Notes: generated from the sequence alone by a model not told the origin. Shown: positions 33,627 through 51,500, numbered from the stretch's first letter. The stretch is 64,000 nt of DNA from a virus (IMGVR_UViG_3300037041_001930); one strand, 5' to 3'. Numbers and translations: made by a program.

Positions 33627-35879
33627 TTAGCCGTCCATGGTTGAATTGATGCCGAGACCGTAGAACTCGGGGTCTCCTGATAGCGTGCGTTTGCGCAAGA
33701 AAATGACAAGGTCACCTAAGCCCTCAAAGGACGACTTCAGGTTGTCACCGAGTTCAACACTGTCTTCCTTGCCAAACTTCTCCTGGAACTCATCGTAGTG
33801 CCAGTGCATCAGGAACAGGATGCGACCGAGGCGGTCCATTCCGGCGACAATAGTGGGCAGGAAGCGCTCAATCATTTCAATGGGGGCGTGAGCCTTGGTC
33901 AGGCTACCGAGTACAGCGGAGTCAAAGACTTCTTTTTGGCCAGTCTTCGCGGCTTGATCAATGGCATCGAAGGGGTCCCCACCACCTTCGTTTTCGGCGT
34001 CTCCATGCCCAAAGGGCGAGAAGTATTGGTATTGCTGCCGATTGTCGGGGATCTGTGCCGGTCTCGCCTGGGTCTCCCAGGGCACCTTGGTTGTATGGAA
34101 ACTCGACATCACACCACCTTCAGAGGTGTCATTGATGTCGGGGAACGCCATCATGTTTTCAGAGGCGGCTTGCTTGACTAACCAGTTCTGAGGAGCCCGG
34201 AGGGCATGCTTGAGCATGCTGCGGGTGTCGACCTCGGAGCACCCGTGCTTCTTCATGAGATAGCTGATCGCAGCTGTCTTCCCGAAGTAGTGGCTGCCGA
34301 AATCATCCTTGATGTTGATTCCGGTTTCGTCGGTCCAGACTTTAACAGCACTGGCCTGCTTCTTGAGGACTTCGATGATCGTGTTGTGGTCGCCGAAGTC
34401 AGAAGCCTCGAGATGTTTTTCCAGACGGGCCTTCTCGCGATCATCCCAGCTCACCTTGGAGTCGTCTTCACGATTACCATAGACAACGGCACTGTAATAC
34501 TTCGAGTTCACGTACAGAGTTGAATTTGTTTTCTTGAGGTCACGGTTCCCGGCAGCGGAAACGATGACTTGGTCGCAGTCGTGTTCGCCAATGTAGCCCA
34601 AGGGGCGATTGATAGCGAAGACACCACGATCCTTGTGAGCGAAGCGCTCGGGGATCGAGCGGAGATCCCATGTGGAACCCCCATGGGTCTTATAGGTCGT
34701 GATGCCGTCATCACTGACCGCGGTGAAGACATCCAGGGGAGCCGAGGTCTTCACACCATCATTGGCGACGAAGATGACTTGGTCGCCAGGGCGAACTTTA
34801 TCGGCGCCCACGCTGACCTTCTCGAGTTCCTTGGCGAAATCGGTTTCCGTGTATTGCCGCAGAGTCGCGATGACACCAGATGCTGTGATACAGGTTTTTT
34901 CATCCGAGCATCGGATCACGAAGACCCTGCCGTTGTCCTGCGACATCGGGATCACAAGTGTGGGTTCCACGGAGCCGTCTGAATACAGGACGTCGTAGAG
35001 GCCGCCACCAGTGGGACTCGTGAGCTGCTGCTTGGTCTGCGTCGAGTACACAATGGACTTCGACATCTCGGGACGCTTGTCGACAACGGCGACGTCACCC
35101 TCGAGGATCTGCTTGCGTTGGGCATCCGTGAGGTCGTCGACGCCTTCTTGGTCAATGGTCGAGATCACAGTGATGGGCTCACCCTTTTGCTCCGCGGCGA
35201 GTTTAACAACACCGGGAACCGTGAAGGCGAGATCGGGGTAGAACTTACGAACCGCATTGGCGAGTTTAACATGCCCTGCGGTCTGGGGGTTCGTGATGGT
35301 ATCCAGGAACATCGAGGCGACATCGTGACCCATGGCTTCGAGCCCACTGGGGAGATCAATGGCACCCGCGATCTTGCGGATATGGGTAATCTTGTGGACG
35401 GGGACCACGGGGCAGCCCCCTGCTGATTTCCGAGCCGCGGCGCGTTTGGACAAACTGCTGCCACCACCATCGCCGTCGTAAATACCGGCGGGGAGCGTGC
35501 GGAGACGATTGTAGTCTGGGGTGCGGACCCCACGTTGGACCCGGTTCCGCTTGTCGGCTTCACCGAGAACCGTGGGACGACGATTGATAATCGAGTTGAC
35601 CCAGTCTTCACTCAAAGGCACGAAGAGGTCTGAGTTCACGGAGTAGATGGAATCGAGCCCCTTGATCTCACCGTTAAGGAAGAACACGGGGCTGTAATGC
35701 CAGTCCCCGCCGATCTCGAACGCGAACATGCCGACCGCACGACCGCCATCTTCATCGGCATCAATGAGTTGAAACCCGACGAGATAGTCGAGGAGAACCG
35801 GTGACTTATCACGGAGTCTGGCGTTGGCGAGATCAGAGAACGTCTGTTCCAGCGCGGACTCAGAGGTATCTTGCGGCAT
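33627..35879 (-). CDS. Large hypothetical head protein with KxA motifs between domains
   Basis: 750 aa; globular N- and C-terminal regions; KRAA, KSAG, KIAG, KLAA, KQAS, KTAA, KQAA; GGAG RBS. Confidence 0.8.
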   Translation of the reverse strand: MPQDTSESALEQTFSDLANARLRDKSPVLLDYLVGFQLIDADEDGGRAVGMFAFEIGGDWHYSPVFFLNGEIKGLDSIYSVNSDLFVPLSEDWVNSIINRRPTVLGEADKRNRVQRGVRTPDYNRLRTLPAGIYDGDGGGSSLSKRAAARKSAGGCPVVPVHKITHIRKIAGAIDLPSGLEAMGHDVASMFLDTITNPQTAGHVKLANAVRKFYPDLAFTVPGVVKLAAEQKGEPITVISTIDQEGVDDLTDAQRKQILEGDVAVVDKRPEMSKSIVYSTQTKQQLTSPTGGGLYDVLYSDGSVEPTLVIPMSQDNGRVFVIRCSDEKTCITASGVIATLRQYTETDFAKELEKVSVGADKVRPGDQVIFVANDGVKTSAPLDVFTAVSDDGITTYKTHGGSTWDLRSIPERFAHKDRGVFAINRPLGYIGEHDCDQVIVSAAGNRDLKKTNSTLYVNSKYYSAVVYGNREDDSKVSWDDREKARLEKHLEASDFGDHNTIIEVLKKQASAVKVWTDETGINIKDDFGSHYFGKTAAISYLMKKHGCSEVDTRSMLKHALRAPQNWLVKQAASENMMAFPDINDTSEGGVMSSFHTTKVPWETQARPAQIPDNRQQYQYFSPFGHGDAENEGGGDPFDAIDQAAKTGQKEVFDSAVLGSLTKAHAPIEMIERFLPTIVAGMDRLGRILFLMHWHYDEFQEKFGKEDSVELGDNLKSSFEGLGDLVIFLRKRTLSGDPEFYGLGINSTMDG

Positions 35880-35908: not shown

Positions 35909-38900
35909 TTAGCGTGGGGATCGCGGAGGGGAAGTCGGTAGCGGCGGCGTGCCATAAGACCCCGTGGTCTTCAGGGTATCCCCGAAACCAGTGGCCTTGG
36001 CGAGAGCGGGGACATAGGACGTCGAGTTGGGATCCGAGACCCTGGAGCGATGAACACTGTCCAGGAATCCTGAGGAGGTATAGAAACCGGATAGCCTGGT
36101 CTGCCAGTCATTGTCGTTGTAGACCCCGAGGACCCCCCGCTGCATCACGGGCTGGAAATCGGGTTCGTCGTCATGGGCGTCGACATCCTTGACCCCCCAC
36201 TTCTGGAGATCCCCGGCGACCTTCTTGGTAATCCGGGTTCCCGGGGTGTAGTGGAGCACGGGTTCCTCGAGGTACTTGCCGACCCCAGAGTTCGGAGCAA
36301 CCCGCTTGGTCCCTGCTCTGGCCTTGTAGGCCCCGGCGACTGAGTTGTAAGACGCGACATCATCGACGATGTGGTCACCGACCCCGTTGGGATTCGTGAC
36401 CTTGACCCAGTTGATGAGCCCGGCGACCACGGTCTCGATGTTGCGACGATGAGTCTTGATCCCTGAGTTCGTCAGAGCCTCCTGGAGCATCTCGGCGTAT
36501 CTGCGGCGGGCTTCCCCGACTCCCTTGAGCCTGACGAGCTGCTCGGGGTGCGGGGCGCCATCGCTGATGTCATCCCCGGCTTCCAGGGCATCTCCGGGCT
36601 TCACCACGGGTTCGACACCGGGGTGGAGATAGTAGTCGCGGTCATCCACGGTGACGAACTGGCCACCCTGGGGTGCCTTGCGGATCCCCTTGACGACACC
36701 ATCGACCTCGGCGAGTGGACCTGACTCCGGGAATGTTTCAGGAGATTCTATAACACGGTTGAGGTACTCGAAACCAGTACGAAGATTCTTTTTAGCCCCG
36801 ATGGCACCAGACTGGTGCTTTGAGTTACTTACGATCATGCCATTACCCAGCACGAATAGGTGGTCGGGGTGAGCTACCTCGATATCATAGACATGAAGAT
36901 GCCCGGCATCTGTCCTGTCTTCCTGACGCCACCACTCTTCGCGAGTAACGCTCTCAACTGCTGTCTTTATTCGGTCGGCCGCTCTCTCACACTTCACGCC
37001 AAATAACCGTATGCTTCTATAAAAACGAATAACATCCCGATATTTAGTAATGCAGACGTTGTAATGTCGTCTCTTTTTCTTCGAGTTGGAGCTGCTCTTT
37101 GTCGCATAGATGCCGAACCTAATGCGCAGCAACTCCATTACGCCATCGATGAGTTTCTCACTGCTAGATGCAAATGAAAACCCCATACCATCTTTTTTCC
37201 GACTAAATACTGAGCCGTCGGTGACAAACAACCCGGCCAGGAGCTCACTCACTGCCTGGTTATCCCATTGATTCACAAACGAAGGTATTTCTTTTTCATG
37301 CGCGTATTTCCCATAAAGACCCTCATCTCTGAACCACTGCAAAATTGGATTTTCAGTGACCGTGCGCATCACACGTCCCGTGATTGTATCCCTCACGATA
37401 CGCCCGTACGACCGCTGGCTCAACCTGGTCAACGCATAATAAATGGTCTGCCCCCCGCATATATGGAACTGTAAATCATGTGGTGCTAAGTAGCCATTGA
37501 GGTGGTCAATCTGAGTCTGGTCTGCACAGGAAAGATGGATCCCGGTCACTGATTCAGTGTAGCATCCGTCCCCGAGAAGCACCCCGAGCAACTTAGCTCT
37601 CCAATCGTAGATCAGATGATTTTCGCTAGATAGCCCTCCCTCACAACGTATTCCAGATGCTTTACTCATGTCTCCAATCGCGCACACGGCATCACGGTGC
37701 ATTTCCCCATACTCAGAACTATAGTGAATGTGCGTTAAAACCTTGTGGGCAGGGGTGCATGTAATGGTATGAAACGTATGGTGGCTACAGCTCTGTCTGA
37801 AACGATAAGTAACACACGGCTGTACACCATTATCAAACGTATGGGTAACCTCCACTGGAAAGGTCTTTCCGGAGATGTCTGCCCCAAGCACGAACTCACC
37901 AGGCTTTATGGTCTCTATCTGACGTAAGCTAAAGTCAGCCATGCGAACAAGCGTACCCTTGGATAGACAATTCAGGGACCCCTGCGACAACGGGGCGCCT
38001 ATGCTCTGGGCAGCCGCGATACCTATCGCATCCCCAATGTTACTGAGTTCTGTTCTGTCTCTGCGCCCTGCTGCGATACGTGAGATCCCCCCGTCTTCAG
38101 TGGGCTCTGTCATCGGGCTGTGAACCAAGATGTCCTCAACCCCATCCTCTGACAGAGATTCCAGTATGTCTGGTGTAATTCTCTCTCCGGCTTTATGTGC
38201 GCCTGCATCCCTGGCAAGCACCGCGCCGATGTTATCAGTGTCGCTGACCTTGGATGGTAGCCCAACTGGTAGCCTGGTCATGGGAGCAGTGTCTTTATTC
38301 ACGACGATACGATGCGCTGCGTTAGCCAACTTCTTGCTTAAAAACCCTGCGTCAGCTGTCGCGAGCTTGACCTCTAGCATACCTTTTCTCTGCCCATAGG
38401 TCCCTGCCCAGTATTCCACGGGATCCAGGCCTTCACTGAGGCTGTGGAGAATCGGGATCGGAACGATTTCATTGCGGTGGTCATTGACGAGACCAGATGC
38501 CCCACGAATCGCGTTGTAGTCTGACATCTTCCCACGGGCACCAGATTTAACCTGAAACCAATATGGGTTGTTCTCGGATTCACCGGACTCCTCGAGCGCT
38601 TTCTGCATCTTCTCGACCATTGGAAACATGACATCGGTGATGGCTTGCTTCTTAGCATCGGGGTCGAGGTCAGAGGTCTCAATGGCCATGACCCTGGAGC
38701 GCGCACGCTGTATCAGCTTTTTCTCTTTGTCTGTTTTCCTGAGCCCGCTGAGACTGACGCTGACACCCTCGGTGAACGCGGCATCCCTGCCGACATCGTT
38801 CATGGTCTTGATGACGTCTTTGTAGCGATCGGGGTACTTCTCGGCGATGTGCCGCAGAATCGACATCAGCTCTTTTTTGTCGATGGCTTTACCCCGGATC

Positions 38901-38959
38901 TGGAGTTCCGGGGGAAGGCTGTCATTGAGCAAAAGGGTGCCGACCGTGGTGGGGTCCAT
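35909..38959 (-). CDS. rpoC: DNA-directed RNA polymerase beta' subunit, C-terminal half, intein-containing
   Basis: TTVGTLLLN, NPYWFQVKSGARG, SLSEGLDPVEYW, bridge helix KLATADAGFLSKKL, trigger-loop GIAAAQSIGAPLSQ...SKH, GIKTHRRNIETVV; all align by eye with bacterial beta' regions E-H. Confidence 0.92.
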   Translation of the reverse strand: MDPTTVGTLLLNDSLPPELQIRGKAIDKKELMSILRHIAEKYPDRYKDVIKTMNDVGRDAAFTEGVSVSLSGLRKTDKEKKLIQRARSRVMAIETSDLDPDAKKQAITDVMFPMVEKMQKALEESGESENNPYWFQVKSGARGKMSDYNAIRGASGLVNDHRNEIVPIPILHSLSEGLDPVEYWAGTYGQRKGMLEVKLATADAGFLSKKLANAAHRIVVNKDTAPMTRLPVGLPSKVSDTDNIGAVLARDAGAHKAGERITPDILESLSEDGVEDILVHSPMTEPTEDGGISRIAAGRRDRTELSNIGDAIGIAAAQSIGAPLSQGSLNCLSKGTLVRMADFSLRQIETIKPGEFVLGADISGKTFPVEVTHTFDNGVQPCVTYRFRQSCSHHTFHTITCTPAHKVLTHIHYSSEYGEMHRDAVCAIGDMSKASGIRCEGGLSSENHLIYDWRAKLLGVLLGDGCYTESVTGIHLSCADQTQIDHLNGYLAPHDLQFHICGGQTIYYALTRLSQRSYGRIVRDTITGRVMRTVTENPILQWFRDEGLYGKYAHEKEIPSFVNQWDNQAVSELLAGLFVTDGSVFSRKKDGMGFSFASSSEKLIDGVMELLRIRFGIYATKSSSNSKKKRRHYNVCITKYRDVIRFYRSIRLFGVKCERAADRIKTAVESVTREEWWRQEDRTDAGHLHVYDIEVAHPDHLFVLGNGMIVSNSKHQSGAIGAKKNLRTGFEYLNRVIESPETFPESGPLAEVDGVVKGIRKAPQGGQFVTVDDRDYYLHPGVEPVVKPGDALEAGDDISDGAPHPEQLVRLKGVGEARRRYAEMLQEALTNSGIKTHRRNIETVVAGLINWVKVTNPNGVGDHIVDDVASYNSVAGAYKARAGTKRVAPNSGVGKYLEEPVLHYTPGTRITKKVAGDLQKWGVKDVDAHDDEPDFQPVMQRGVLGVYNDNDWQTRLSGFYTSSGFLDSVHRSRVSDPNSTSYVPALAKATGFGDTLKTTGSYGTPPLPTSPPRSPR
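36824..37969 (-). mobile_element. 382-aa intein with LAGLIDADG homing endonuclease, inserted in the beta' trigger loop
   Basis: Starts CLSKGT, block B TCTPAHKVLT, LLGVLLGDGC and LLAGLFVTDGS, block F VYDIEV..DHLFVLGNG, ends IVSN followed by Ser(+1). Removing it restores QSIGAPLSQGSLN|SKHQSG. Visibly more AT-rich than the gene's 3' part. Confidence 0.92.
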
Positions 38960-39177
38960 TATCGGGATCCAGTACGGATGACCTCAACGGGGGTCGGGGT
39001 CAAACCAAGTTTGCGAACCGTGGATGAGAAATCTGACTTCGTGGCATCGGTATGCGCAACCAACCCATTTTCCTCATACGACAGCGCCAGGGGTTGTCCG
39101 AAGTCATCGGTAACGACGACTTCGGCAACGCTGATGTGGATCTGGCGTCCATCGGAGAGTCGGATGCGAGCACGCAT
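38959..39177 (-). CDS. Small hypothetical protein coupled to the beta' C-terminal gene
   Basis: 72 aa; stop overlaps the beta'C start (TAATG). Confidence 0.65.
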   Translation of the reverse strand: MRARIRLSDGRQIHISVAEVVVTDDFGQPLALSYEENGLVAHTDATKSDFSSTVRKLGLTPTPVEVIRTGSR

Positions 39178-39178
39178 G

Positions 39179-40060
39179 TTACCTCTGCGCTAAAACGGGG
39201 GCAGTTGAACTCTTTGGTGCCGTGATCGCAGCTGTCGTGGCGCTCGCCGAGGGGTCTTCGACTGGTTGATTATTGACGGACACGATGCCTGACTTGGTAC
39301 CCTTGGCGACAGGTGGAAATGAGAGTGTCTTCTTAGGAGCACTCGCCGCAGACTTGGAGAGACCAAGTCGGGACAAGATTTCCTTGGCCATCTTCACCGT
39401 GTTGCCACCGATAGCGCTGGGGTCGAGTTGGCCACCCAGTGAACCCATGGGCCCACCGCCACCTTGGGGTTGGCCAGTGATAGCACCATTGGCCGTTGCG
39501 GCGGCGTCGGCATCCGACTTCTTGCCCTTGTTCTCTTGTTCTTTCTTCTTGCCTTCTTGTTCGAGCTCGAACTCGGCTTGAGCTTGTTCTTTGGTGCGGC
39601 CTTCACCAATGGAGGCCATGGCGCGTTCAACGATGCCCATGACGACATCGGCTTGTCCACGTGTCACGGAATCATCGGGACTACCCTTGACGTCAGGAGT
39701 TCCCGGAGCCGTGGGATCCGGGGCACCAGCGCTGGGGTCACCACCTGCGGCGGGGTCACCACCACCAATAGCACTCAGCATGTCGCCTTCGGGTGGCATG
39801 CCACCTGCAGCTGCGAGGTCACCGCCCGGTGGCATCCCACCCATGGCTGCAGGATCCCCGCCTGGAGGCATCCCACCCATGGCCATGGGATCACCGCCTG
39901 GAGGCGCCGGAGGAGCTCCTGCGGCGGCGGGGTCACCACCAGGAGGTGCACCACCAGCGGCGGCGGCGGGATTGCTGCCCGGAGGAGGCGCGGCCACAAA
40001 GGCCAGCTTCTGTGCGAACTCATTGAGGCTGCGTTGAAAGAGTCTTGCGGAGATGTCCAT
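39179..40060 (-). CDS. Low-complexity Pro/Gly/Ala/Met-rich head protein
   Basis: Repeats GGDP(A/M)A(A/M)GG(M/A)PP; KLAF, KMAK, KSAA motifs. Confidence 0.7.
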   Translation of the reverse strand: MDISARLFQRSLNEFAQKLAFVAAPPPGSNPAAAAGGAPPGGDPAAAGAPPAPPGGDPMAMGGMPPGGDPAAMGGMPPGGDLAAAGGMPPEGDMLSAIGGGDPAAGGDPSAGAPDPTAPGTPDVKGSPDDSVTRGQADVVMGIVERAMASIGEGRTKEQAQAEFELEQEGKKKEQENKGKKSDADAAATANGAITGQPQGGGGPMGSLGGQLDPSAIGGNTVKMAKEILSRLGLSKSAASAPKKTLSFPPVAKGTKSGIVSVNNQPVEDPSASATTAAITAPKSSTAPVLAQR

Positions 40061-40079
40061 GGTGACCTCTAAAGGGTGT

Positions 40080-41096
40080 TCACTTTGTGGCGGGGCCAGT
40101 CGCGGTTACCGGAGGTGTCGATTTGATTGCACCGTTTGTGGCGCTGGCCGGAGGTGCTGGGGGTGTGATCGGGACTACCGCACCGTTTGTCGCACTGCCC
40201 GGTGACTTACGTTGTAGCTGTGCCAACTCCGCTTTCAGGTCATCATTCGTCGGCAATTTAACTGGTGGAGCCCCCACGGGATCAGGTTTTAATAGCATGT
40301 TCATTGGATTTATGTTATGCGCTGCGTCGAATATCTCCGGTCCAGCTTTATTCAAGTCTACATCGTTGCCAGCCTGTGGCTGCTTTTCCGGCGCTGTCGC
40401 TGGGGTTAGTGCATCCTGCGCTTTACCAAGCCCTTCCCGAATCTGGGGGAATGCCTTGTCGACATGGGGTCCCGCGAAGTAACCCGCGGTTCCGCCGGCG
40501 AGGGCAGCGATGAGAGCATTGCGCCACTTGTTCTTCTTACTCAGGAGGGCAGCACCCCCACCGGCGAGAGCGGCACCAGTAACGGCACCGATATTGGCGG
40601 GGTCCTTGTAGAACGGGGTTGTCGGGGCGGCGTCTTGGGCAGTCTTCTTGCCAACAACCTTAGCAGGGGCCACCTTTGGTGCAGGGGCTGCTTTTGGCAA
40701 CACGGCTGGCTTCGTCGCCGAGCGCGGGGCCATCTTGGCGCCAAGTGCTTCGAGAAAATCCGGTGAAGTCCCCACTGCGTTGCCATCGAAGTCGGCACGT
40801 GATGCCGCCGCTGTTTTGGCGACATCCTTGGCACCTGCTCCAGAGAGAGCACCGAGGCCCTGGCGGATCTGGGGGACCGCTTTGTCGACATGGGGACCCG
40901 CGACATAACCAGCGGCACCCCCAGCCAAAGCAGCGATGAGGGCGTTACGCAACTTGTTCTTCTTACTCAAGAGAGCTGCGCCACCACCGGCGAGAGTGGC
41001 ACCAGCGACGGCACCGATATTGGCGGGGTCCTCATAGAAGGGGACTTCAGCAGCTGTTTTAGTCAGGCACAGGGCAAGAAGACGTGTTGGGCGCAT
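40080..41096 (-). CDS. Protein with a duplicated 64-aa glycine-zipper hairpin module
   Basis: PFY(E/K)DPANIGAV..ALAGGGAALLSKKNK.RNALIAALAGG.AGY.AGPHVDKA.PQIR.GLG twice (40851-41042 and 40425-40616), each preceded by KTA. Confidence 0.8.
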   Translation of the reverse strand: MRPTRLLALCLTKTAAEVPFYEDPANIGAVAGATLAGGGAALLSKKNKLRNALIAALAGGAAGYVAGPHVDKAVPQIRQGLGALSGAGAKDVAKTAAASRADFDGNAVGTSPDFLEALGAKMAPRSATKPAVLPKAAPAPKVAPAKVVGKKTAQDAAPTTPFYKDPANIGAVTGAALAGGGAALLSKKNKWRNALIAALAGGTAGYFAGPHVDKAFPQIREGLGKAQDALTPATAPEKQPQAGNDVDLNKAGPEIFDAAHNINPMNMLLKPDPVGAPPVKLPTNDDLKAELAQLQRKSPGSATNGAVVPITPPAPPASATNGAIKSTPPVTATGPATK

Positions 41097-41165
41097 GGTG
41101 GATTCCTACTATGGGTTATGGGATGACAGGATAACAACTGGATCGGAGACACCAAGATGGTGTGT

Positions 41166-42110
41166 TCATGGGGCAGGCTGGGCTTCCCCTTGTCTGCGGA
41201 TGGTATCGAAAACTACTTGTTGGGCCTTACGCCTCGCCGCTGCCTTGATCTTAGCCAATGCGATTTCCTGGGCTTTAATGGCAGCCGCGGAGCCGACTAT
41301 GCGCTCTACAGCTTTCACTTTTACCTGGGTCTCCGGGGATTTCCAGGCAGCTTTGGCGTCATCAACGGCCTCGCCTGCGATTTCCTTGCGGTCGTTCCAG
41401 ACATCAACGAGAGTCTTAAATATGGCTGAGTTCTTGAAATCGTCTTTATTCGAGTGCATCAGTGCCGCTGCTAAACGCTTGCCAGTATCCACTCGTGTCG
41501 GAGCAAAGACATTGCCTGCTCCAGTCATCGCGGCACGTGGGATGGTGTCACCGACGACATTGGGCAGCGTGAGCGCCTTCCGGGGCTGTGTGTAATCCTT
41601 GAATACGGGTTGTTCCTTGAATGTCCGCAGGAGCTCATCGAGGTAGACACGCCCCATCGCACGATTCACGGGGTTGGTGATATTCAGGGATCGCAAAGCA
41701 AACATGGGGAGATGCTCGGCGACCCGTGCAGGGGATACCGGCAACCCGGTTTCCTTCACGATCATGGCGGCCGCGGAATCATTGGCCCTACTGGCAGCAT
41801 CCCCGGCTGCGTATAGTCCGGTTCCCGCTGCGGTGGCCCCGAGCCCTGTGGCCAGGAACTTACCAGGTCTGGTGCCCATGCCCATGACAAGTCTGGGGAT
41901 CGAGGAGGGGCCCACCTTAGTGGTCCCCGTCCATTGCTGATACGGAGTCATCTGCCCCTTGGGGGTCATCACGGGTGTGTGGAATTTCTGCACGGCATCA
42001 GTGGCCTTGTTGACCACTGGTTTCACCGCGCTGACCCCGGACTTCGCCGCGTTCCATATCCCGCTAAGACTGGCAGCTGCGGTCTTCGAGATTACACAGG
42101 GCAGCCGCAT
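41166..42110 (-). CDS. Hypothetical head protein with N-terminal KTAA and glycine-rich helix
   Basis: MRLPCVISKTAAAS...LATGLGATAAGTGLYAAG; TAATG coupling to the RNAP gene. Confidence 0.75.
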   Translation of the reverse strand: MRLPCVISKTAAASLSGIWNAAKSGVSAVKPVVNKATDAVQKFHTPVMTPKGQMTPYQQWTGTTKVGPSSIPRLVMGMGTRPGKFLATGLGATAAGTGLYAAGDAASRANDSAAAMIVKETGLPVSPARVAEHLPMFALRSLNITNPVNRAMGRVYLDELLRTFKEQPVFKDYTQPRKALTLPNVVGDTIPRAAMTGAGNVFAPTRVDTGKRLAAALMHSNKDDFKNSAIFKTLVDVWNDRKEIAGEAVDDAKAAWKSPETQVKVKAVERIVGSAAAIKAQEIALAKIKAAARRKAQQVVFDTIRRQGEAQPAP

Positions 42111-45100
42111 TACTTGGACCCCTTACCAGAGTTCAGGATAACCACGGGGTCGGCGACACCAAGATCCCCCCTGAGGTAGGCCTGGTAGGCGTCCTCCTTG
42201 GAGGCAAAGGTGCGCGGAGTCTTGTTCTTCTTGATACTGGTGGCCAAGTAGAGCCCGGCGAGATAATCCTTGTCAGGCTTGAGATGGACGTCGAAATCAG
42301 CGGGGTGCCAGAGGTTCTTCGAGGGCATCATCTTCTCGATGACATCCCTGACGGCGTCGTGATGCGAGGGCACATGCAAATTGATCTTGTCGCCGTCGAA
42401 GTCCAGGTTCGCCCCGGGTTCGACGACCTGGGGGACCCCAATGTTGTTGCCTCTGGAGAGCACGGGCCAGGCCCCAACATAGTTGTAGCGTTGCAGTGCA
42501 GGGGCGCGATCCCAGTACACGGGGCGAGTCTTCATCTCGTTCTGGAGCTCACGGAGTGCAGCGGGCTTCTGTTCCCGTACAGCCATGACGGCCTCACGAG
42601 CACTCCACCCCGATCGGACGAGACGCCGGATCACATAGGGGCGATACACGGTCCACGCCATGTCCTTGGGGATCGAGACCTGGTCCATGTCGAGTTCGGG
42701 GTCCGGGGTGGCGACACCACGACCCACGGTATCCACGGCCTGGCCGAGCACCTTGCGCTGGAATCTCGCAAACTTGGGGGAGTCGCCGACACCAATGGCG
42801 TTCTGGAGAAGCCCCTTGACGCCCTGTTCGACATGCTTGGGGTTAATGGGGGCACCTAGACCCGCGACGGCTTTGGCAGCCGCGTACATGGCACCGTATT
42901 CCTCACCGGCATCCCCAAAGGTCTTCTGGGCCTCCGTGTAATTCTTCCCGGACTCCATGAGATCATGGTAGAGATAGTTGGCGTCATGGATGATATCCAT
43001 TTTACCAGCACGTATAACAGGCCTGAACTTCGGAGGTATAACAGGGATCTTGGAGATCATGAGGTCTCCGGGATCGACGCCTGCGGACTTCAGACCACTG
43101 AGATAGTTGAGGGCACGGACATGGACATCACGGGATGACTTCGATCCCGTCTTGACCCCCTGGATGTGCATGGCGATCTCGCGTTCAACATTGATCCCCT
43201 TGAGCGCAGTCTCAATGGCTTCAGGCCCAGTCTTGTCGCCAATCTTCTCCTGCCCACTGAGGACATCGAGGAACCTCTGCTTGGTGAGGCCAAGTATCCG
43301 GATGATGGGTTCCTCCATCACGGGATTCGGGATCTTCTGGGGCAACTCGATCTTGGTGAAGTGGCGGCCATCGGCACCACCTGTCTTCGCGAGATCGAAG
43401 AGGCCGCCATCCTTGGGCTGCATGGTCTCGAAGTCAAAAGTCTCCGATGTCGAGACTGAGTGCTGGGCCAGGGCATCGGTGTCCGCATCAGTCATCGGGG
43501 CGAGCTTGAGCCTGCCCTGGTTCTCACGCACGTTGACCCCGGCACCCTTGAGGAGGGTGAGGAAGTGACCGTGTGCACCCGACGCCTCGGGCATCACGGG
43601 ATCCATACCAAGTTTCACGGAGCGCCAGTAGTCATCGTTGCGTTGCCCACGAATCAGCTTGGCGTCTTTCAAAACATTTGTGGCACCGGCACTTAGGAGG
43701 CATTGCACGCCAAGCAGAGCAATTTTCTTACTACCTGAGCTGCCACCTTTGGCAGGCGAATCATCGGATGTGTAACCCCCGGTGTCCCGTGCGGCGAGGC
43801 CAGACTCCGCGGTGTGATGTAACCGCATGAGATGCTGGACCCCAGTGAAGATGCCCTTGATCTTCCGCCCCGTCCTGGGATCAGTGACATCATCGAGTTC
43901 ATCGACACCGTTGGCCTTGGCCTCGTTCAACGCGAACTCACCGAGGTCATCGTGGTCAAATGATTTTAGAACGTATGGTTTCCCGGTTTTCTGGGCCACC
44001 TTACCTAGCAGGGTCTCCGCGAGCACTGATGGGTTCGCTCGGGAGATGACCCCAAGGGCATTAACGATGACATCCAAGGGCTTGCCATCCGCACCCACTG
44101 GCATCTCACCATCGGGAACTATCTGGGAGACGACACCTTTGTTGCCATAGCGTGCTGAGAGCTTGGAGCCCTCAGTCATGGGCTCCACACTGGAGATCAT
44201 GACCTTGATGCCCTTGCGGGTTCTCACGACATCTGTGACCTGACCGGGGGTCGAGTGATCCCAGGTCTGCGAGGCATCAGAGAACGCTGATCTCGCCGAT
44301 GGGGTGACGACCCCACCAGGTCTCGGGGTCTTCTTGCGCACCGCGAGGAGCACGGGATCCCCGGGCTGCACAATGGTGCCCTCTTTGATCACACCGTCGT
44401 CATCGATACCCGAGATCTGCTCAGGTTTGTACTTACCCTGGAAGATCGAGGAGTAATCCGCTTTCTTCGTGGAATGAATGTTCTTATCGAGTTCAAGTTC
44501 ATGTTTGTAGGCGTGCTGTGAGGACAGCCGGCGAGCCGCGGATTCCGAGATGACAAAACCATCTTCATATGTTCTGCCGCTTCCAACCATATAACCAACA
44601 TTTAAGTTTGTACCCAGTGTTGCCTGGCCTTTGTCATCCGTGAAGTTCGATTTCGCGAGGACATCCCCGGGTTTGAAACTATCACCTTCGCGAACCAATG
44701 GTGTGTTGTGCAGACTTGTTTTACGCGCCAGGGGGTAGTTGTTATACAACTCATGTCGTTCCTTCTTGCCCCCAGCGTAGACGACATCGATGTGGTCTGG
44801 TGTCACGGCGACAACACGCCCGGGTGCCTTGGCCTTCACGGCGCCCATCCAGGTACCCATGGAGTCATGAATCGAGGTGCCGTCGGGATTCGCGGCTTGA
44901 ACTAAAGGGGCCTCAGGCGCTTGTAGCGGGAGGGCCTGTGACGTCATTCTTGCCCCCATCAGGGTTCTCTGTGACTTCGCACCTTGGGTCATCGGGACCA
45001 TATTGGTGAGCCTGGAGAACATCGAGGACCCATGGGGGAGTTCGTAGTCGACCTCTGCGGCGGGCTTCCACTTAATGTCTTCGCCATCGAGAACGCGTAC

Positions 45101-46657
45101 CATCGGTGGCAATGGCTTCCCGAGACCGTGCATGCCCACGGACGCCGAGAGCTCGGGATCCCTGGAGATGTCATCCATGGTGACCACGTGGTCCACATAC
45201 TTTCCATCATCACCAGGCAGGGGTACCTTGTAGAACTCGCGCTTCGCCGCTTTCGCGAACTCACCAGGAAACGCAATGGGCTTCTGGGAGGCCTGAAGTG
45301 CAGACAGCGTGACTTCCTCACCCTTGCGTGATCGCACCTTGAAATAAAGGCGACCATCGGAACCCTTGAGGGCGCCATCGGTGAGACGCATGTCGACACC
45401 GATGTTCTGGCCTTCAGGTGCCCGGATGGGATCAATGATACCGAAGTAGCTGGGCTGGACACCGCGTGCTGAACGCGGTACGGCTTGGTTGGACGAAATC
45501 CCGCCCTCGCCGAGGCGCGTTATGGTCTGACGGGCATCCATGATCTCCAGGGGATTCGTGTCTTCCACTGAGCTCATGAGTCCACTTTGAAACACGCCAT
45601 CCACTGCTGGGTTCAGGAGTCCTGGGGATACGTTTCCAAGATTGCCCTCACGGGTCGCCCGCCACAGCAATTTTCGCATGGCGTCACTGCCACGACTCAA
45701 GCGTTCCTCGAAGAAGTCCTCGGGGCCATGGAAACTCTGAAAGGCCTGAGAATCCCGGACATCGTCGGGGACCTCATCACGACTCCGCTTCAACATCTTC
45801 GTAGTCGCATTCAACATGGTGTCGAGATTGAAATTCTTGTACTTGGCTCCCAGCGTGGTCTCAGTGGTTTCCTCGTCGAGCTCGGCTCTTCCAAGGATCT
45901 CATGGAGTTTGTCTTTGAGGAGTTCGGTTGCCGTGTCTTGGTCACCTCGACGCCCCATCTTGGCCACGATCTTACGAGCCTCCTGGGCGTCGTGCCCACC
46001 AGGTGGGCGCCAGTTCGCCTTGAATAGATCATCCCCCCAGGCTTCCCTGATGGTTGCATCGGGGACCCCCATGGATCTCAGCAAGGGGTACAGCCGGGTT
46101 CCACTCTGGCCCACGTTCAACTTGAACACGCCTGTGGAGGGCTCGAGCTGGAGATCGAAGCCCCGACCACTGCCTGGCTTCGGATTCACCTGAGCCTTGA
46201 CGTCCCCGTTCTGCTGGCGGAGCACGTAGACCCCGGGGCGCAGGCGCTGCTGGTTCTTGGCGGCCCAAATGGTGCCCCCGCGAACAAAGATGCCACGTGG
46301 GGTCAAATGGGGGACATGCGCAAGGGTGGTCTCGGTTTCATCGACGACTGCACCGGATGCCTTGTCGACCAAGCGAACCCTGCCCTTGATGGCGCGCTGC
46401 ATGCTCTGACGAGACATCAGCGCTTTCTTCTCATCACTGAGGCTGGGGTTGTAGTCCTGGGCGTAATCGGAGTCTGCGATCTCAACCCTGTACTTCTCAT
46501 TCTCGACAGGCTTCAGGGCACGGACCCCGCGCAGTGCATTCGAGTAGATGGCGTCGCGTTGTCCGCTGACGTCATCAAAACTTCTATGGGTCACCGGGGC
46601 TACGGGACTCGGGCTACCCACGGGGGTATCAAAGGCGCCTTTGAGATCGCCTATCAT
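42110..46657 (-). CDS. rpoB: RNA polymerase beta subunit fused to the N-terminal (catalytic) half of beta'
   Basis: Beta motifs: VPHLTPRGIF..QRLRPGVY, DTNPLE..RLGEGG, QPSYFGIIDPIRAPEGQNIG, RTLMGARMTSQALPL, TYEDGFVIS, GSKLSARYGNKGVVS, LDVIVNALGVISR, GIFTG..LMRLHH. From ~43530: GGLFD, IPVIPPKFRP, RFQRKVLGQAVDTVGRGV, RAPAL, catalytic NLDFDGD (42389-42409), KDYLAGLY. Confidence 0.95.
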   Translation of the reverse strand: MIGDLKGAFDTPVGSPSPVAPVTHRSFDDVSGQRDAIYSNALRGVRALKPVENEKYRVEIADSDYAQDYNPSLSDEKKALMSRQSMQRAIKGRVRLVDKASGAVVDETETTLAHVPHLTPRGIFVRGGTIWAAKNQQRLRPGVYVLRQQNGDVKAQVNPKPGSGRGFDLQLEPSTGVFKLNVGQSGTRLYPLLRSMGVPDATIREAWGDDLFKANWRPPGGHDAQEARKIVAKMGRRGDQDTATELLKDKLHEILGRAELDEETTETTLGAKYKNFNLDTMLNATTKMLKRSRDEVPDDVRDSQAFQSFHGPEDFFEERLSRGSDAMRKLLWRATREGNLGNVSPGLLNPAVDGVFQSGLMSSVEDTNPLEIMDARQTITRLGEGGISSNQAVPRSARGVQPSYFGIIDPIRAPEGQNIGVDMRLTDGALKGSDGRLYFKVRSRKGEEVTLSALQASQKPIAFPGEFAKAAKREFYKVPLPGDDGKYVDHVVTMDDISRDPELSASVGMHGLGKPLPPMVRVLDGEDIKWKPAAEVDYELPHGSSMFSRLTNMVPMTQGAKSQRTLMGARMTSQALPLQAPEAPLVQAANPDGTSIHDSMGTWMGAVKAKAPGRVVAVTPDHIDVVYAGGKKERHELYNNYPLARKTSLHNTPLVREGDSFKPGDVLAKSNFTDDKGQATLGTNLNVGYMVGSGRTYEDGFVISESAARRLSSQHAYKHELELDKNIHSTKKADYSSIFQGKYKPEQISGIDDDGVIKEGTIVQPGDPVLLAVRKKTPRPGGVVTPSARSAFSDASQTWDHSTPGQVTDVVRTRKGIKVMISSVEPMTEGSKLSARYGNKGVVSQIVPDGEMPVGADGKPLDVIVNALGVISRANPSVLAETLLGKVAQKTGKPYVLKSFDHDDLGEFALNEAKANGVDELDDVTDPRTGRKIKGIFTGVQHLMRLHHTAESGLAARDTGGYTSDDSPAKGGSSGSKKIALLGVQCLLSAGATNVLKDAKLIRGQRNDDYWRSVKLGMDPVMPEASGAHGHFLTLLKGAGVNVRENQGRLKLAPMTDADTDALAQHSVSTSETFDFETMQPKDGGLFDLAKTGGADGRHFTKIELPQKIPNPVMEEPIIRILGLTKQRFLDVLSGQEKIGDKTGPEAIETALKGINVEREIAMHIQGVKTGSKSSRDVHVRALNYLSGLKSAGVDPGDLMISKIPVIPPKFRPVIRAGKMDIIHDANYLYHDLMESGKNYTEAQKTFGDAGEEYGAMYAAAKAVAGLGAPINPKHVEQGVKGLLQNAIGVGDSPKFARFQRKVLGQAVDTVGRGVATPDPELDMDQVSIPKDMAWTVYRPYVIRRLVRSGWSAREAVMAVREQKPAALRELQNEMKTRPVYWDRAPALQRYNYVGAWPVLSRGNNIGVPQVVEPGANLDFDGDKINLHVPSHHDAVRDVIEKMMPSKNLWHPADFDVHLKPDKDYLAGLYLATSIKKNKTPRTFASKEDAYQAYLRGDLGVADPVVILNSGKGSK

Positions 46658-46659: not shown

Positions 46660-47427
46660 TTACCCCGTGATCTCAGTAGCCGGATCACGTTTCTTGAGAG
46701 TTGGAACCATAACAGCCATCGGGGTACTCGCCCCCACGTTGTTGAGGTAGTCGCGCATCGCCTTGGCTTTGGCGCGATACTTATTCTCGTCTTTGTTCTT
46801 GTTATACGCGTTCATGGCCACGATGGTTCCCGCGATACCCAGAGGGATCCCAATGGGGGCCAGGACTTCACCGACACCGGCGGCACCACGCATCCCGAGG
46901 TCCGCGATGAAGCCTGCGGTCTTCGGTAACTCAGCGGTATGACTACCGACTTCCGAGGTACCCAGGTTTTCCACATAGACGTCTTCGGCAACCTTCATGG
47001 CGCGGGAGAGCCCGGCATCCGCGGGGTCGGGTTCACCATTGATCAAGGCCTGGACACGTTTTCTGCTGCGCTCCAGTGAGCTCATCGCTTTGGCTTTTCG
47101 CTTCTTGTCCAGGAAACTATCGAGGGCAGACCAGCCACCAACTGCGGACAGGGTGCCAATGCTGCCTTGCACCGCTGTATCCAGAATGTTGTCGGCTGCT
47201 GTTTTAACTTTGATGCCCTGCTTCTTGAGCTCCTTGGCCTCTTCCTCACTGACATCCACGGGGACCTCAACCGCTGAGCTCTCCCCCGGGGGCAACTTGA
47301 CAGGAGCACGGGTGCCCGACTTATTGGCGATGTCGTAACCCCATCGGGCCAGACGAGCACCAACACCGAGTCCGAGACCGGCGATAGCTGGGAACGCGAC
47401 ATCACTGTAAGTAAGATTGAGTGCCAT
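46660..47427 (-). CDS. Glycine-zipper head protein
   Basis: Three Gly-rich hydrophobic segments, two directly after KTAA and KTAG; KVAE also present. Confidence 0.75.
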   Translation of the reverse strand: MALNLTYSDVAFPAIAGLGLGVGARLARWGYDIANKSGTRAPVKLPPGESSAVEVPVDVSEEEAKELKKQGIKVKTAADNILDTAVQGSIGTLSAVGGWSALDSFLDKKRKAKAMSSLERSRKRVQALINGEPDPADAGLSRAMKVAEDVYVENLGTSEVGSHTAELPKTAGFIADLGMRGAAGVGEVLAPIGIPLGIAGTIVAMNAYNKNKDENKYRAKAKAMRDYLNNVGASTPMAVMVPTLKKRDPATEITG

Positions 47428-47436
47428 GACGGGATC

Positions 47437-47859
47437 CTATTGTTCCGGGGACGCCTGTAGAGGGGCGAATCGGCGCGGGGGTCGAGGTGATCCAGGAAGT
47501 CCGTAATCGAGTGCAGACCATCGCATGAATGCTTTATACTTTCCGGTCTTCTCGGAGAAATCCACCCGATTCTCAGATAACACTGCACGGGCCTCAGCGA
47601 TGTCCTGCCAAACCCTACGATAGGCTTCCAGGTGGTCTGGGTTATCGAGATCGAATACGGCGACCTCAGGAGTATAGAACTCCTGGACTTGTTTGGAGTC
47701 GGGATCCTTGGGATGGATCAGTGGGACTTCCCCAGTGATCGGGACTTCACGTGGTGCCGTGTGGCGTACCACCCGCATGCCCTGAGGCAGGGGTACCCGG
47801 GTGCCCTGGAGGACCTGGTTGGCGTTAATGGTTCCTGGAGGCAGGGGGTTAGAGCTCAT
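47437..47859 (-). CDS. Hypothetical protein
   Basis: 140-aa ORF within the operon, with short spacing on both sides. Confidence 0.7.
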   Translation of the reverse strand: MSSNPLPPGTINANQVLQGTRVPLPQGMRVVRHTAPREVPITGEVPLIHPKDPDSKQVQEFYTPEVAVFDLDNPDHLEAYRRVWQDIAEARAVLSENRVDFSEKTGKYKAFMRWSALDYGLPGSPRPPRRFAPLQASPEQ

Positions 47860-47862
47860 CTC

Positions 47863-48591
47863 TCAGAACCTCATGGATTGTTTGGGGGCCGTGCGCTTGG
47901 CAAGAATAGATGACAAAATCTTATTCGTGCGCTGTGACTTCAACTGATCCGCTTTCTGCTCTAGGAGTCGCTTCTCAACCATGACACGCTCGATGTCTTC
48001 ATCAGTGGCGTCTTCCCCAAAGATATGCCCCATTGTGGTCCCCGCGGTACCATAGAGCCCAGCGGACGCCGAGGTCACACCTTTGATCGGTGCGGTGACC
48101 AGAGTGGGGTCCACGAGAAACGAGGCGGCTTCCTTGACGTGACCAGTCTTACAGAACCCGGGGTGATCGATGAGCCCAGAGGCCCGGGCACCCTCGAGGT
48201 ACCCAAGTCTGACCGCGTTGCGGACGTCCCGCTCAATCGCGAGTTTAATGAGTTCTGCCGGCTTCATTTTTGCTGTCTCCATTCCAGTTTTCATATTGAG
48301 TAGCGTCCCCAACCCAGCCCCAATGGTCTTCATTGTCGACGCCGTGGAATCGCTGACCCCCAGCCACTTCGCCGCGAGGGCACCGATGCCGAGGCCGACG
48401 CCGGCGCCCAGGGCACCCTGGACGACCTGAGTAGGCGTGATCCAGGGTTTGGCTGCCGGCTGCTGAGCTGCGGCACGATCAATGATCTCAATGCTCTTCA
48501 CCTTGTCCCAAAGATTCAAGGATGGGTCAGTGAAGACCCTGTCCTTGGCATCGCTCACCGCGATCATAGCCGCTGCGGATTCCATAGTCAT
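47863..48591 (-). CDS. Glycine-zipper head protein
   Basis: GALGAGVGLGIGALAAKWLG and IGAGLGTLL; KEAA motif; ATGA overlap. Confidence 0.75.
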   Translation of the reverse strand: MTMESAAAMIAVSDAKDRVFTDPSLNLWDKVKSIEIIDRAAAQQPAAKPWITPTQVVQGALGAGVGLGIGALAAKWLGVSDSTASTMKTIGAGLGTLLNMKTGMETAKMKPAELIKLAIERDVRNAVRLGYLEGARASGLIDHPGFCKTGHVKEAASFLVDPTLVTAPIKGVTSASAGLYGTAGTTMGHIFGEDATDEDIERVMVEKRLLEQKADQLKSQRTNKILSSILAKRTAPKQSMRF

Positions 48592-51500
48592 GGTTTCTTA
48601 CCTCCCGCCAAGCCCCAAGAACGCAGTTTTAGATCAGTATTGTTGGCTAAGCCAGTCAGGCTCCATCTGCTCGCCTTTGGTTTACCAATGCGGTTTCCAG
48701 TCAGATATGCCAGCAGGGCCTCAAACTGGTCATCGTTGATGCCTTTGAAATAGGGGTCCGAGGCCTCGACACGAGATTTCAAAAAACTGGGCATGAAGTC
48801 ATGTGCGAGTTCAAGGCTGTTAAAGAATCTGGCGTTATCAGGGGACTTCATCCACTGCTGCCATTTCCCCTCGTCTGCCGAAGCCTGCCGCATGACTTCC
48901 AAGCGCTCCTTGACCACCTTGGCACGATAATCATCCATCTTCTTGGGATCCGCCTTGATCTGTGCGAGAAGATCTGGATCCGTGGGTGGTGGGATCTCAC
49001 CACCTGCGTTGTTCAAGGACTGATATCTCTGGTATGCCCCATAAGCGCCACCACCTAGGACAAGTGCCCCCATGATGGCGCCGGCCTTACCACCCATGAG
49101 CATGAGCACGAGACCCACGGGGATCGCGGCGAGGTCGAGGTTGTACTTTTGCGCCCAGTCCATGCCCTCTTGGGCCTTCGCCTTGGCCTGATCCCATACC
49201 GAGGGGGCCTGAGGAGGCTTCGTGGCATCGGGGCTGGTGGGTGTGGCCTGCGTCGTCGCTGAGACAGTCGTGCTGGTAGCCGTGGTCTGCGGTGCCTGTG
49301 TCGACTTCCGCTTGGCAGCCTGTGATTTCGCCACCGCATCTGACTTTTCCTGCTGGGTCAACGCAGGGGTCCCCGTGTTGCCACCAGTCCCAGGAGGGGG
49401 CTGGGGAGCCGACGGGGGTGTCTTGATCGAGTTTGTGTACGTCTTCCCCATGTCGCCGGCGTCAGGAGTTGCCGGAGGGGGCTGTGACGTGGGCTGTTTC
49501 TGCATCCCCATCATATTCTTCGCCCAGTCTATGGCGCCCTCAGCCAGAGGCCTCATCGGCTTCACGACGTTTTCGAGAGGGGTCCCACCATCAGCGGATT
49601 CCGCGGCGAGCTTGCACCCACGCCCCCACACCTTTGCGAAAGCCTTCTTTGGGTTGCCAATTACAGGCGGAGTATTCGAGACAACAGGTTTCACGGGTTG
49701 GATCTCCGTAGGCTTGACCTTAGCGGGTTCTTGGGGTAGGGGAACCACTGGGGCTTTCGGTGCCTCGACTTTAGTAAGATTTTTCCGGTAAGCCTCGTAA
49801 TCCTTTATGGCCTGTGCTCGGTTTCCACCTGCTCTCTTGTCCCAGTACGCCGAACTCCAGCTCTGCTCAGCGGGATCCCCTGGTGGCGTCTGTGGTGTCG
49901 AGTGACCCCTGAAGCCGCCTGGGAACATGTCACGGTACACCTTGGGGTTCTCGTGCATGTGAGTGATGACATCCTCCCGGGTCACCGGGCGTGCATTAGC
50001 ACCCTCACCAATGCTCTGAGTGGGTTTTCCATCAGCACCCATGATGTATTCAGGTGCGGGTTGAAAGGGGTCAGGGGCTTCGCCTGCTTTGGCCTGGTGC
50101 TGCCGCCAGTACGCATCCATGTTCTTGAATGTCTCCGGGGACTTCGCAGCCCAGAACTCGGGGTGCGCGGTCTGATACCTGGATACCCCGGTGAGGTAGA
50201 GGCCTGGGTTGGTAAGCGGGGAGTCGACTTGGTACCCACGACGGATGGCCTCGGGGCTCACCTGCATGATGCGGCCAGTGGTCTTATTGAAAGTCCACGC
50301 CGGCGCATTGTCGCCCTGGGGATCCCACTTCGAGGAGTCAAACCCATAGGCTTGTTCCTTGAACCCCTTGGGGGCCTCCTGGCCCTCGGCGAGGTCATGT
50401 GAGTTACCCTTGGCATCGACGTAGTACCTGCCCTGCACAGCCGGGGGTTCTACTTTATCAAAGCCATACTTCTCTCCAAGTTCCTGTAACAGTTTATTGG
50501 TTGCCTCTGGGTTTACGAAAGTGTTATCTTTGAATCTCTCAAATCCAGCAGCGCCTCCCAGGGTATGGCCGCCTTGAGACCGGACATCCTGGTTCAGGGC
50601 GTGCAGGGAAGCATTGGCACGTGTAAATGGCGCCAGGACTGCCTTGGCCGTGGTCTCCGGGAGTCTGGACAACTTGGCCTGGAAAATGGACTCAGCGTTG
50701 GGATCCTTGGGGTCGATGTCCAGGCGCTGATACGCCGCGGCTTTCGCGGCCTCCCTGCGGTCCTCGAGTACGATGCGTTGGTTCTTCAGGGAGTCACCCC
50801 CCATGGAATCAAACCCGTATCTGGAGTTCATGGGGTTACCGGGTCCCCCGAATGTCTTCCCGCCCCATGAATACTTGTCACTGGTGCGATCGCTGCCCCG
50901 GTACTCGACGAGGAGATCCCCGAGTCCGTTCTTCTTGAGATCATCTACGATCTCTTGTTTTCTCAGCGCACCTCGCTGGAGCATCTTGGGCTTCATGACA
51001 TCCGTGTAATCCGTGGTCTTCACCCTGGCCTTGGCCATGATCTGCTCAGGTGTGAGCCCCGTGGAATCCGTGATCAGCTTCGTGGTCTCCGGGGCCCCCA
51101 GTGCCTGGATGTCCTGGGGGTCCATTAGGGTGTCCAGGATACCCTGGACCCCGCGGTGGATGGCATGTGGGGAGTTCCGGGAGATATCGAACCGAGGCTT
51201 CTCGCCAAACCCTGCCCCAGTGGAGAAATCGTTAATCTGCTGTGTCGCCGGCGCAATCGCCGTGGAGGCCTGCGATAGCACTGAGGCGAGTTCGTCGTGG
51301 GTCTTCACGGACTCCAGGTTATTGACGATGCCATCAGTCTTGGACTGCCAGTGGGCCTGAGCACGTTGCGCCAACTGGTCCTTGTACGCCGCGGGGAGGT
51401 GCATGTATAACGGACTGGTGTCCAGGGCATCCCGCACCGTTGTCCTCACGCGATCATGAGTCGCCGCAACTGAGGTCCTCGCGATGTCCCTGAGATCACG

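Follow-up and report, generated by a model that had tools for sequence, protein, structure and literature searches.

Within a window of 64,000 nucleotides (nt) of IMGVR_UViG_3300037041_001930, a 136-kb sediment metagenome contig from an uncultured freshwater-sediment phage with a genome of about 200 kb, the genes for the beta and beta' chains of an RNA polymerase (positions 35,909 to 46,657) lie between the portal gene and the genes for the prohead protease and capsid protein. One chain joins beta to the N-terminal half of beta' (beta+beta'N) and the other is the C-terminal half of beta' (beta'C). A preliminary description of the window had proposed from this position that the polymerase travels in the virion, and our analysis of gene content, of gene order and of the virion proteins of a cultured relative, Salmonella phage Arash, leads us to regard it as probable that the enzyme is packaged, ejected and used to transcribe the early genes in the next host. 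Comparisons were made with 50,697 phage records, with the IMG/VR contigs G001 and G002, and with the loci L001 (Arash), L025 and L026. The complete relative G001 (216,043 bp, terminal repeats, CheckV 100%), which is colinear with the window at 80-90% DNA identity, was used in place of the whole genome of the window's phage.

Polymerase genes within the head operon

That the two genes encode RNA polymerase subunits was borne out by Pfam domains in both chains and by an intact catalytic motif. Beta+beta'N matches PF00562 (E 2e-40), PF04565 (E 2e-7) and also PF00623, contains the GNKGV motif of beta and, at residues 1417-1423, has the sequence NLDFDGD in which all three Asp of the catalytic triad (NADFDGD) are kept, while beta'C matches PF04998 (Rpb1_5) at E 4e-16 and retains the trigger-loop His. 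Among solved structures, the nearest chains to beta+beta'N are those of bacterial beta (E 1e-57) and beta' and of cyanobacterial gamma, with the matches to bacterial beta and beta' ranging from E 1e-57 to 1e-30, and neither the phiKZ nor the AR9 enzyme is among the best 60 structure-chain matches listed. The rifampicin-binding cluster I region (residues 340-440, window 45338-45640, minus strand), when aligned to Escherichia coli beta 499-575, shows the changes Q513S, D516E, H526A, R529T and S531T and a deletion of F514. As H526 and S531, the classic rifampicin-resistance positions, are both substituted, the phage enzyme is predicted to be insensitive to rifampicin.

The beta'C gene is interrupted by an intein that splits the trigger loop at SLN|SKH. 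Alignment with the 634-amino-acid (aa) intein-less G001 allele gives two blocks that are 88-91% identical and an exact insertion point, and the spliced sequence equals that allele across the junction except at the +1 residue, where G001 has Glu in place of the window's Ser. Intein sites shift within the polymerase, since the trigger loop is occupied in the window and not in G001, and LAGLIDADG or Hint domains occur in many family members; G001 has a 1.3-kb insert of its own (147862-149174) in beta+beta'N, placed behind residue 572, whose equivalent in the window is 44944/44945.

Every large gene from about 23.7 kb up to the window end is on the minus strand. Read 5' to 3' along that strand, the portal is followed by a 1901-aa gene and three small ones. 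Next come beta+beta'N, four genes (314, 338, 293 and 72 aa), beta'C and a 750-aa gene; a further four (108, 310, 499 and 414 aa) precede the prohead protease, after which are a 511-aa scaffold-like gene, a 203-aa gene and the capsid protein (Table 1). Family searches of the head genes gave matches for the portal and protease only, both of them weak, and the identities were settled by annotated relatives. We confirmed that the polymerase genes are inside a portal-to-capsid operon, with the portal upstream and protease and capsid protein downstream: coding on one strand accounts for 97.7% of bases from 24671 to 57316, and at 17 of the 21 junctions in this interval the genes either overlap or are at most 30 nt apart. 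The claim that no replication genes are close by also held, as family and profile searches of the window proteins detected none; in G001 a DNA polymerase A, an SF1 helicase and an SbcC-like ATPase are found at 20-50 kb, far from the structural block. TAATG overlaps join the stop of the 72-aa open reading frame (ORF) to the beta'C start (38959) and the end of beta+beta'N to the start of the 314-aa gene (42110), the beta+beta'N start codon is 2 nt past the stop of the gene upstream, and 27 nt containing GGAG separate the beta'C stop from the next start. Stop and start codons overlap at five of the 21 operon junctions, so that the polymerase overlaps show integration into the operon and not a special link.

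What are the limits of this transcription unit? At its head, about 1.2 kb upstream of the portal gene and at the gene boundary just before the gene that precedes portal, is a copy of a motif, CTTGAC-N4-AGTAAAC, that we infer to be a promoter. Its seven exact copies in G001 are all on the coding strand and all at gene boundaries, whereas shuffled sequences held 0-4 copies at up to two mismatches, and the syntenic G001 position (161579) bears the identical one-mismatch copy. Instances of CTTGAC-N4-AGT(A/G)AAC in G001 (199080, 197186, 182709, 161579, 40027, 23623, 13873 and 3521) are frequent in non-structural regions, and a single one heads the structural block of roughly 100 kb. No -10-like element was evident 17 nt after the TTGAC, and no further credible motif copies were found between 57349 and the capsid gene. 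At the other end, directly 3' of the capsid gene, is the only strong intergenic hairpin of the minus strand (free energy -34.5 kcal/mol, z -4.9, none of 200 shuffles equally stable). A hairpin occupies the same place in G001 (about 129095-129125) with an entirely different stem sequence and an identical TCTTTGG tail; that the fold is kept while the stem sequence changes speaks for a function. Scans of 33000-52000 and 22000-36000 counted fewer sigma70-type promoters and simple terminators than shuffled sequences, and a k-mer search of the structural block for a distinct late-promoter motif found nothing convincing. With no excess of promoters or terminators between motif and hairpin, both polymerase genes would most simply belong to a single head operon about 33 kb long. 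Contigs from freshwater-sediment metatranscriptomes include portions of the polymerase genes and span three of the junctions; we did not accept them as evidence of expression or co-transcription, their depth being that of the paired DNA run, so that DNA carry-over is possible.

Table 1. Features of the head and polymerase unit of the window, in order of transcription.
Feature	Position	Strand	Remarks
Promoter-like motif CTTGACGCTCAGTGAAC, candidate start of the unit	57349..57365	-	One-mismatch copy of CTTGAC-N4-AGTAAAC
Portal protein, 623 aa	54290..56161	-	Weak PF05133 and phrog_64; 27-28% identity over about 75% of length to Arash portal gp204 and the Vibrio D69 counterpart
1901-aa protein, candidate internal/ejection protein	48588..54293	-	4-nt overlaps at both ends; no Pfam or PHROG match; variable in the family
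Three small genes (242, 140, 255 aa)	46660..48591	-	Directly upstream of beta+beta'N; Ala/Gly-rich, hydrophobic stretches; no family match
RNA polymerase beta fused to N-terminal half of beta', 1515 aa	42110..46657	-	Rpb2_3, Rpb2_6, then Rpb1_1, Rpb1_2 (Pfam)
314-aa gene	41166..42110	-	TAATG overlap with beta+beta'N end; no family match
Two low-complexity Ala/Pro/Gly-rich genes (293, 338 aa)	39179..41096	-	Between the polymerase genes; no family match
72-aa ORF, candidate small polymerase-associated protein	38959..39177	-	TAATG overlap with beta'C start
RNA polymerase beta' C-terminal half, 1016-aa precursor, about 634 aa spliced	35909..38959	-	Rpb1_5 and LAGLIDADG; homologous to Arash gp216
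LAGLIDADG intein, aa 331-712	36824..37969	-	PF14528; Cys1 ... Asn, +1 Ser
750-aa conserved virion protein	33627..35879	-	Homologous to Arash gp218, D69 0266 and genes in G002 and L026
Prohead maturation protease	28305..29849	-	phrog_18299; 31-32% identity to Arash gp222 and D69 0270
Major capsid protein, 312 aa	24671..25609	-	26-27% identity to Arash gp226 and D69 0275
Intrinsic-terminator-like hairpin, candidate end of the unit	24611..24642	-	14 pairs, then U-rich tail UUCUUUGG; directly 3' of the capsid gene

Relatives, sigma factor and virion proteins

A megablast search of the 10.7-kb polymerase region against the phage records found no match. At the protein level the full-length fusion protein and the portal are shared, in those records, only with Arash and with Vibrio phages D69, D148 and D181, and on these proteins we assign the window phage to the Arash/D69/D148/D181 lineage, which has no formal taxon. 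Beta+beta'N aligns along 97% of its length with Arash gp206 and D69 0261 at 29-30% identity, and in Arash and D69 the portal is again followed in turn by beta+beta'N, beta'C, the 750-aa homologue, the protease and the capsid protein, with 25-30% identity to the window. G002 (48% identity) has the same order up to the end of its locus, which falls about 4 kb past the 750-aa gene and before any protease or capsid gene; L026, of a lineage at 35% identity, keeps the polymerase genes and the 750-aa gene; and in L025 (about 30% identity) the portal gene is 3.3 kb upstream of a full beta-beta' fusion (10001-16438). Such fusions, with the entire beta and beta' in one chain of 1963-2155 aa, are found in some family members (P0107-P0116, the L025 branch), and part of them have an added peptidase M23 domain (PF01551). 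Cultured members of this polymerase family, which is under strong conservation, number only four, but metagenomic relatives of the fusion protein form more than 100 clusters; these come from freshwater, sediment and other sources, and their contigs reach 215 kb. Relatives occur both in lake water and in freshwater sediment. For the mReC clade of Weinheimer and Aylward (2020), the listed pairs are of 1373-1386 aa and 1004-1014 aa and the capsid proteins match PF07068 (PMC7481178). The contig identifiers of G001, G002 and L025 do not appear in the mReC supplements (PMC7481178).

The preliminary description had suggested looking for a second polymerase elsewhere in the genome, and we found none in complete G001 or in Arash. 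G001 has a single Rpb2_6 locus and a single Rpb1_2 locus, and neither phmmer nor a DFDGD motif scan turned up a paralogue of either subunit; Arash has one set. A T7-like polymerase (PF00940) had no match in G001 or Arash, and neither had alpha (PF01193) at E <= 1, although 14 of 14 control genomes matched the alpha profile; omega was not searched. Of roughly 227 genes called in G001, nearly all are on one strand, and the large terminase subunit (63220-65265, plus strand) is the one big gene on the opposite strand.

G001 encodes a sigma-like protein (88549-89232, minus strand), homologous to Arash Gp10 and the only one in the complete genome. Its gene corresponds to a position outside the window, about 12-13 kb before the window start, and is part of a baseplate operon, two genes upstream of Baseplate_J. 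A profile built from three sequences recovered chains of RpoS, SigB and SigA, with matches that cover regions 2-4 at E 1e-11, and a sigma70-family homologue was found in G001, G002 and Arash. The catalytic core and the specificity factor are thus both encoded among structural genes, and both are present in Arash virions. Reviews describe polymerase-encoding jumbo phages without sigma homologues and sigma-encoding ones without polymerases (PMC7598289); to judge by its genes, the Arash-like lineage fits neither group.

The virion proteins of Arash (genome OQ632216) were determined by mass spectrometry after sucrose-gradient purification (PMC10585845). Gp206, the beta+beta'N homologue, gave 3516 spectra, the most of any protein, and 128 unique peptides; unique peptides numbered 40 for Gp216 (beta'C), 38 for Gp217, 36 for Gp218, 32 for the portal and 24 for the sigma factor Gp10, and two each for DNA ligase, primase and two helicases (PMC10585845). 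The Arash authors propose a role for the virion polymerase in early transcription (PMC10585845), and we found no later literature that follows this up. Given that a cultured relative has the same enzyme in its virions, the enzyme of the window phage is probably loaded into the head and injected.

Neighbouring genes and K-x-A sites

The preliminary description had the polymerase genes translationally coupled to head genes bearing K-x-A sites. Both overlaps exist, but the neighbours cannot be shown to be head genes of this kind: the 72-aa ORF has zero K-x-A, the 314-aa ORF has three against 3.9 expected and is absent from G001, and none of the genes directly adjoining the polymerase genes is enriched. 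Enrichment does occur in the head genes, beginning further downstream, from the 750-aa gene on, and is significant in the 750-aa (K-x-A z 3.3, K-x-A[ASG] z 8.4), 499-aa, protease (K-x-A z 4.5), 511-aa and 124-aa genes. Arash gp220, gp223 and protease gp222 are also enriched in K-x-A(A/S/G), as is the head-module subset of the window (24211-35879, minus strand), and the capsid protein has an N-terminal K-x-A site, about 25 residues in, that is kept at the same alignment position in Arash and D69. The signal looks genuine, and K-x-A(A/S/G) in the head-module proteins fits a cleavage code of the prohead protease, whose true start is probably near 29705.

The 750-aa gene is always 0-2 genes downstream of beta'C in the relatives. 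An AlphaFold model of its product (mean predicted local distance difference test, pLDDT, 70; predicted template modelling score, pTM, 0.38) had no PDB match at E <= 0.001 by Foldseek, and the ESM Atlas contained no usable match to the protein. In BFVD (Foldseek) the sole strong match (E 1e-15) is an uncharacterised phage protein, and seven weaker matches to RNA-virus proteins (E 7e-5 to 9e-4) have TM-scores below 0.1 and are uninformative.

The 72-aa ORF has homologues at the matching place in G001, G002 and L026 (14981-15241); they range from 72 to 86 aa and have a common motif, R-I...DD..PLAL.Y, and the L026 ORF likewise overlaps the beta'C start. Arash and D69 have small basic ORFs at this position that are unrelated to it. 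The product of the 72-aa ORF could be a small polymerase subunit. In G001 an insert of about 1 kb (142044-143094) that is not in the window separates this ORF from beta'C, and it may be a free-standing homing endonuclease. The segment 41158-42134, which holds the 314-aa gene, has no counterpart in G001, where its flanks abut; the gene is a strain-specific insertion and does not belong to the core head genes.

Several proteins that are rich in Ala, Gly and Pro and contain hydrophobic stretches are encoded among the portal and polymerase genes at 39179-41096, 46660-48591 and 58211-59158 (minus strand), and may be internal or ejection proteins. The three small genes upstream of beta+beta'N are all kept at the corresponding place in G002 at 29-39% identity and the 293-aa gene is partly conserved there; the 1901-aa protein is absent in Arash and D69 and in G002 has no more than a short match at its C-terminus. 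Elsewhere in the window, four tail-fibre-like genes follow one another at 3836-16148 (minus strand), three of which (starts 6820, 12214 and 16148) have a common N-terminal 'LP(I/V)-N..LT.L' module. The strongest RNA hairpins predicted are dominated by collagen-like G-x-y repeats, which run across 3836-7855 and recur near 15200-15500.

Packaging, its alternatives and known systems

How would a polymerase encoded among head genes be used? Both of its genes would be expressed with those for the portal, internal proteins, protease, scaffold and capsid protein from one tightly packed unit, and since they are inside one head transcription unit the enzyme would be made together with the head proteins. 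Beta'C would first splice the intein out of its trigger loop, the core would be built into the procapsid, probably with the phage sigma70-family factor, and it would then be ejected with the DNA so that the first genes in the next host could be transcribed without the host polymerase. The proposal that the polymerase is made with the head proteins and packaged gains support from the conserved gene order, the Arash virion peptides, the presence of just one polymerase set and the location of the sigma gene in a structural operon; packaging in the window phage itself, late timing, ejection, early transcription and sigma dependence are what we infer from these.

Could the polymerase instead remain outside the virion, serving as a middle or late transcriptase expressed by read-through or from unrecognised internal promoters, with the host polymerase starting the infection and the Arash signal representing carry-over? 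Several of our observations weigh against packaging and towards this alternative. The motif that heads the unit belongs to one class with those of the replication region and so is no mark of late expression, and its TTGAC resembles a host -35 element. The G001 genome is transcribed nearly all one way, and read-through could therefore express the polymerase at other times. We found no packaging signal in the polymerase chains, either as K-x-A or as a conserved N-terminal targeting peptide. K-x-A is not enriched in the chains of the window (z 1.4 and 0.9) or of Arash, and we consequently discarded it as a sign of polymerase processing; the Pro/Ala-rich N-terminal extension of beta+beta'N, considered as a capsid-targeting peptide, is variable in length and absent in many family members, and the K-G-A at residues 6-8, considered as a targeting site, is not conserved. 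As regards Arash itself, the preparation was purified on sucrose only, 116 of 272 proteins were detected, metabolic enzymes such as ribonucleotide reductases among them, and the authors offer carry-over of abundant proteins as an alternative explanation (PMC10585845). Against carry-over, the 128 and 40 unique peptides of the polymerase chains compare with two each for clear contaminants and are like the counts of the neighbouring structural proteins. Moreover, genes about 10-20 kb deep in a head operon would supply an enzyme too late to help unless it was carried over into the next infection, their position has been held through divergence to 25-30% identity, and the sigma gene is also within a structural operon. 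We therefore think it unlikely, though deserving of serious attention, that the polymerase is left out of the virion.

A different possibility is that the polymerase is packaged but is not the early transcriptase, acting for instance as an internal head protein that aids DNA ejection or protects the incoming DNA while the host enzyme transcribes the early genes. The long low-complexity, hydrophobic proteins interleaved with the polymerase genes would suit such a role. However, the enzyme still has the three catalytic Asp, the GNKG motif and the trigger-loop His, the intein is at a site that must be restored for catalysis, the family is strongly conserved and there is no second polymerase to take over, all of which makes such a role very improbable. 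Least credible of all is that the place of the polymerase among the head genes is a historical accident of insertion without functional meaning: insertions are indeed tolerated there, as the 314-aa gene, the differing intein sites and the 1-kb insert of G001 show, but without selection one would not expect six core genes to stand in the same order at only 25-30% identity in phages from Salmonella, Vibrio and freshwater hosts.

The reading that we prefer, a packaged and ejected early transcriptase, can be addressed experimentally, since Arash grows on Salmonella Typhimurium ATCC 14028 and the hypothesis is directly testable there. With the rifampicin pocket substituted, a rifampicin test of early transcription is feasible and should discriminate.

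The closest known systems are Arash, D69, D148 and D181, which like the window phage have two chains, a beta+beta'N of about 1520 aa and a beta'C of about 610-630 aa. Arash-like phages have the same succession of portal, polymerase, gp218-like, protease and capsid genes and one polymerase set, with a Gp10-type sigma in Arash and G001. Arash and D69 differ in being only 25-30% identical and in having neither the 1901-aa gene nor the low-complexity genes that flank the polymerase in the window, and Arash further differs in having a 'helicase' gene, gp217, after beta'C, reverse-strand genes between the polymerase genes and a second, clearer sigma, gp196, and in that no intein is seen in its gp216. 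The idea of a virion polymerase is partly anticipated for Arash (PMC10585845). We did not find the conserved placement in the head operon, the single set and the sigma gene in the baseplate operon discussed in the papers that we consulted. If the association holds, polymerase and sigma genes in structural operons could be used to predict packaged transcription machinery from genomes.

The preliminary description had likened the polymerase to the virion enzymes of N4, crAss-like and phiKZ-like phages, and the likeness is one of function and not of homology. The N4 virion polymerase is packaged and injected, and the crAss-like virion RNA polymerase is gp66 of phi14:2. N4 gp50 and the crAss-like enzyme resemble ours in being encoded among late or structural genes and, in those phages, in being packaged and injected, but N4 gp50 is a single-subunit T7-like polymerase and the crAss-like enzyme is one giant, highly diverged chain, and neither is related in sequence to that of the window. 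The virion polymerases of AR9 and phiKZ are likewise packaged and injected (PMC7598289). With phages of this type (Chimalliviridae and PBS2-like phages), the window phage has in common a multisubunit beta/beta'-type enzyme, the lack of an alpha homologue and, by analogy, virion carriage for the early genes. PhiKZ and AR9 have two sets, virion and non-virion, of four to five chains each, which are highly diverged from bacterial enzymes and are accompanied by no sigma homologue, whereas the window lineage has one set of two chains that are near bacterial beta/beta', together with a sigma70-family gene.

Likenesses to cellular enzymes also exist. The beta'N part ends close to the end of cyanobacterial gamma, the matches to 8h3v_E and 8syi_D stopping near residue 550 of about 625. 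In natural rpoB-rpoC fusions of the Helicobacter type the beta C-terminus is linked to the beta' N-terminus, and the link in the window chain resembles these. Unlike the cellular forms, the virus combines a gamma-like split with a beta-beta' fusion and has no detected alpha (omega not searched), and such a minimal core, similar to bacterial polymerase, would be tractable for structural and mechanistic work.

A more distant parallel is found in the poxviruses. Vaccinia makes its RNA polymerase and early factors late and packages them, and the analogy would be of a single multisubunit polymerase and a specificity factor made with virion parts for the next infection; poxviruses differ in being eukaryotic viruses with an unrelated initiation factor. 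We put forward only tentatively, and with less conviction than packaging as such, the idea that one bacterial-type polymerase might serve for the whole infection, its core and sigma70-family factor being packaged and injected as a holoenzyme, so that the host polymerase would never be needed. If so, this would be the first sigma-dependent virion polymerase, and it would break the rule that jumbo phages have either their own polymerases without sigma or sigma factors for the host enzyme. Three forms of virion-carried polymerase are known, those of N4, of crAss-like phages and of phiKZ and AR9. If the polymerase of the window phage is indeed packaged, it would be a fourth form, one that is near the bacterial enzymes, is made of two chains, is the phage's only polymerase and is paired with a sigma70-family factor.

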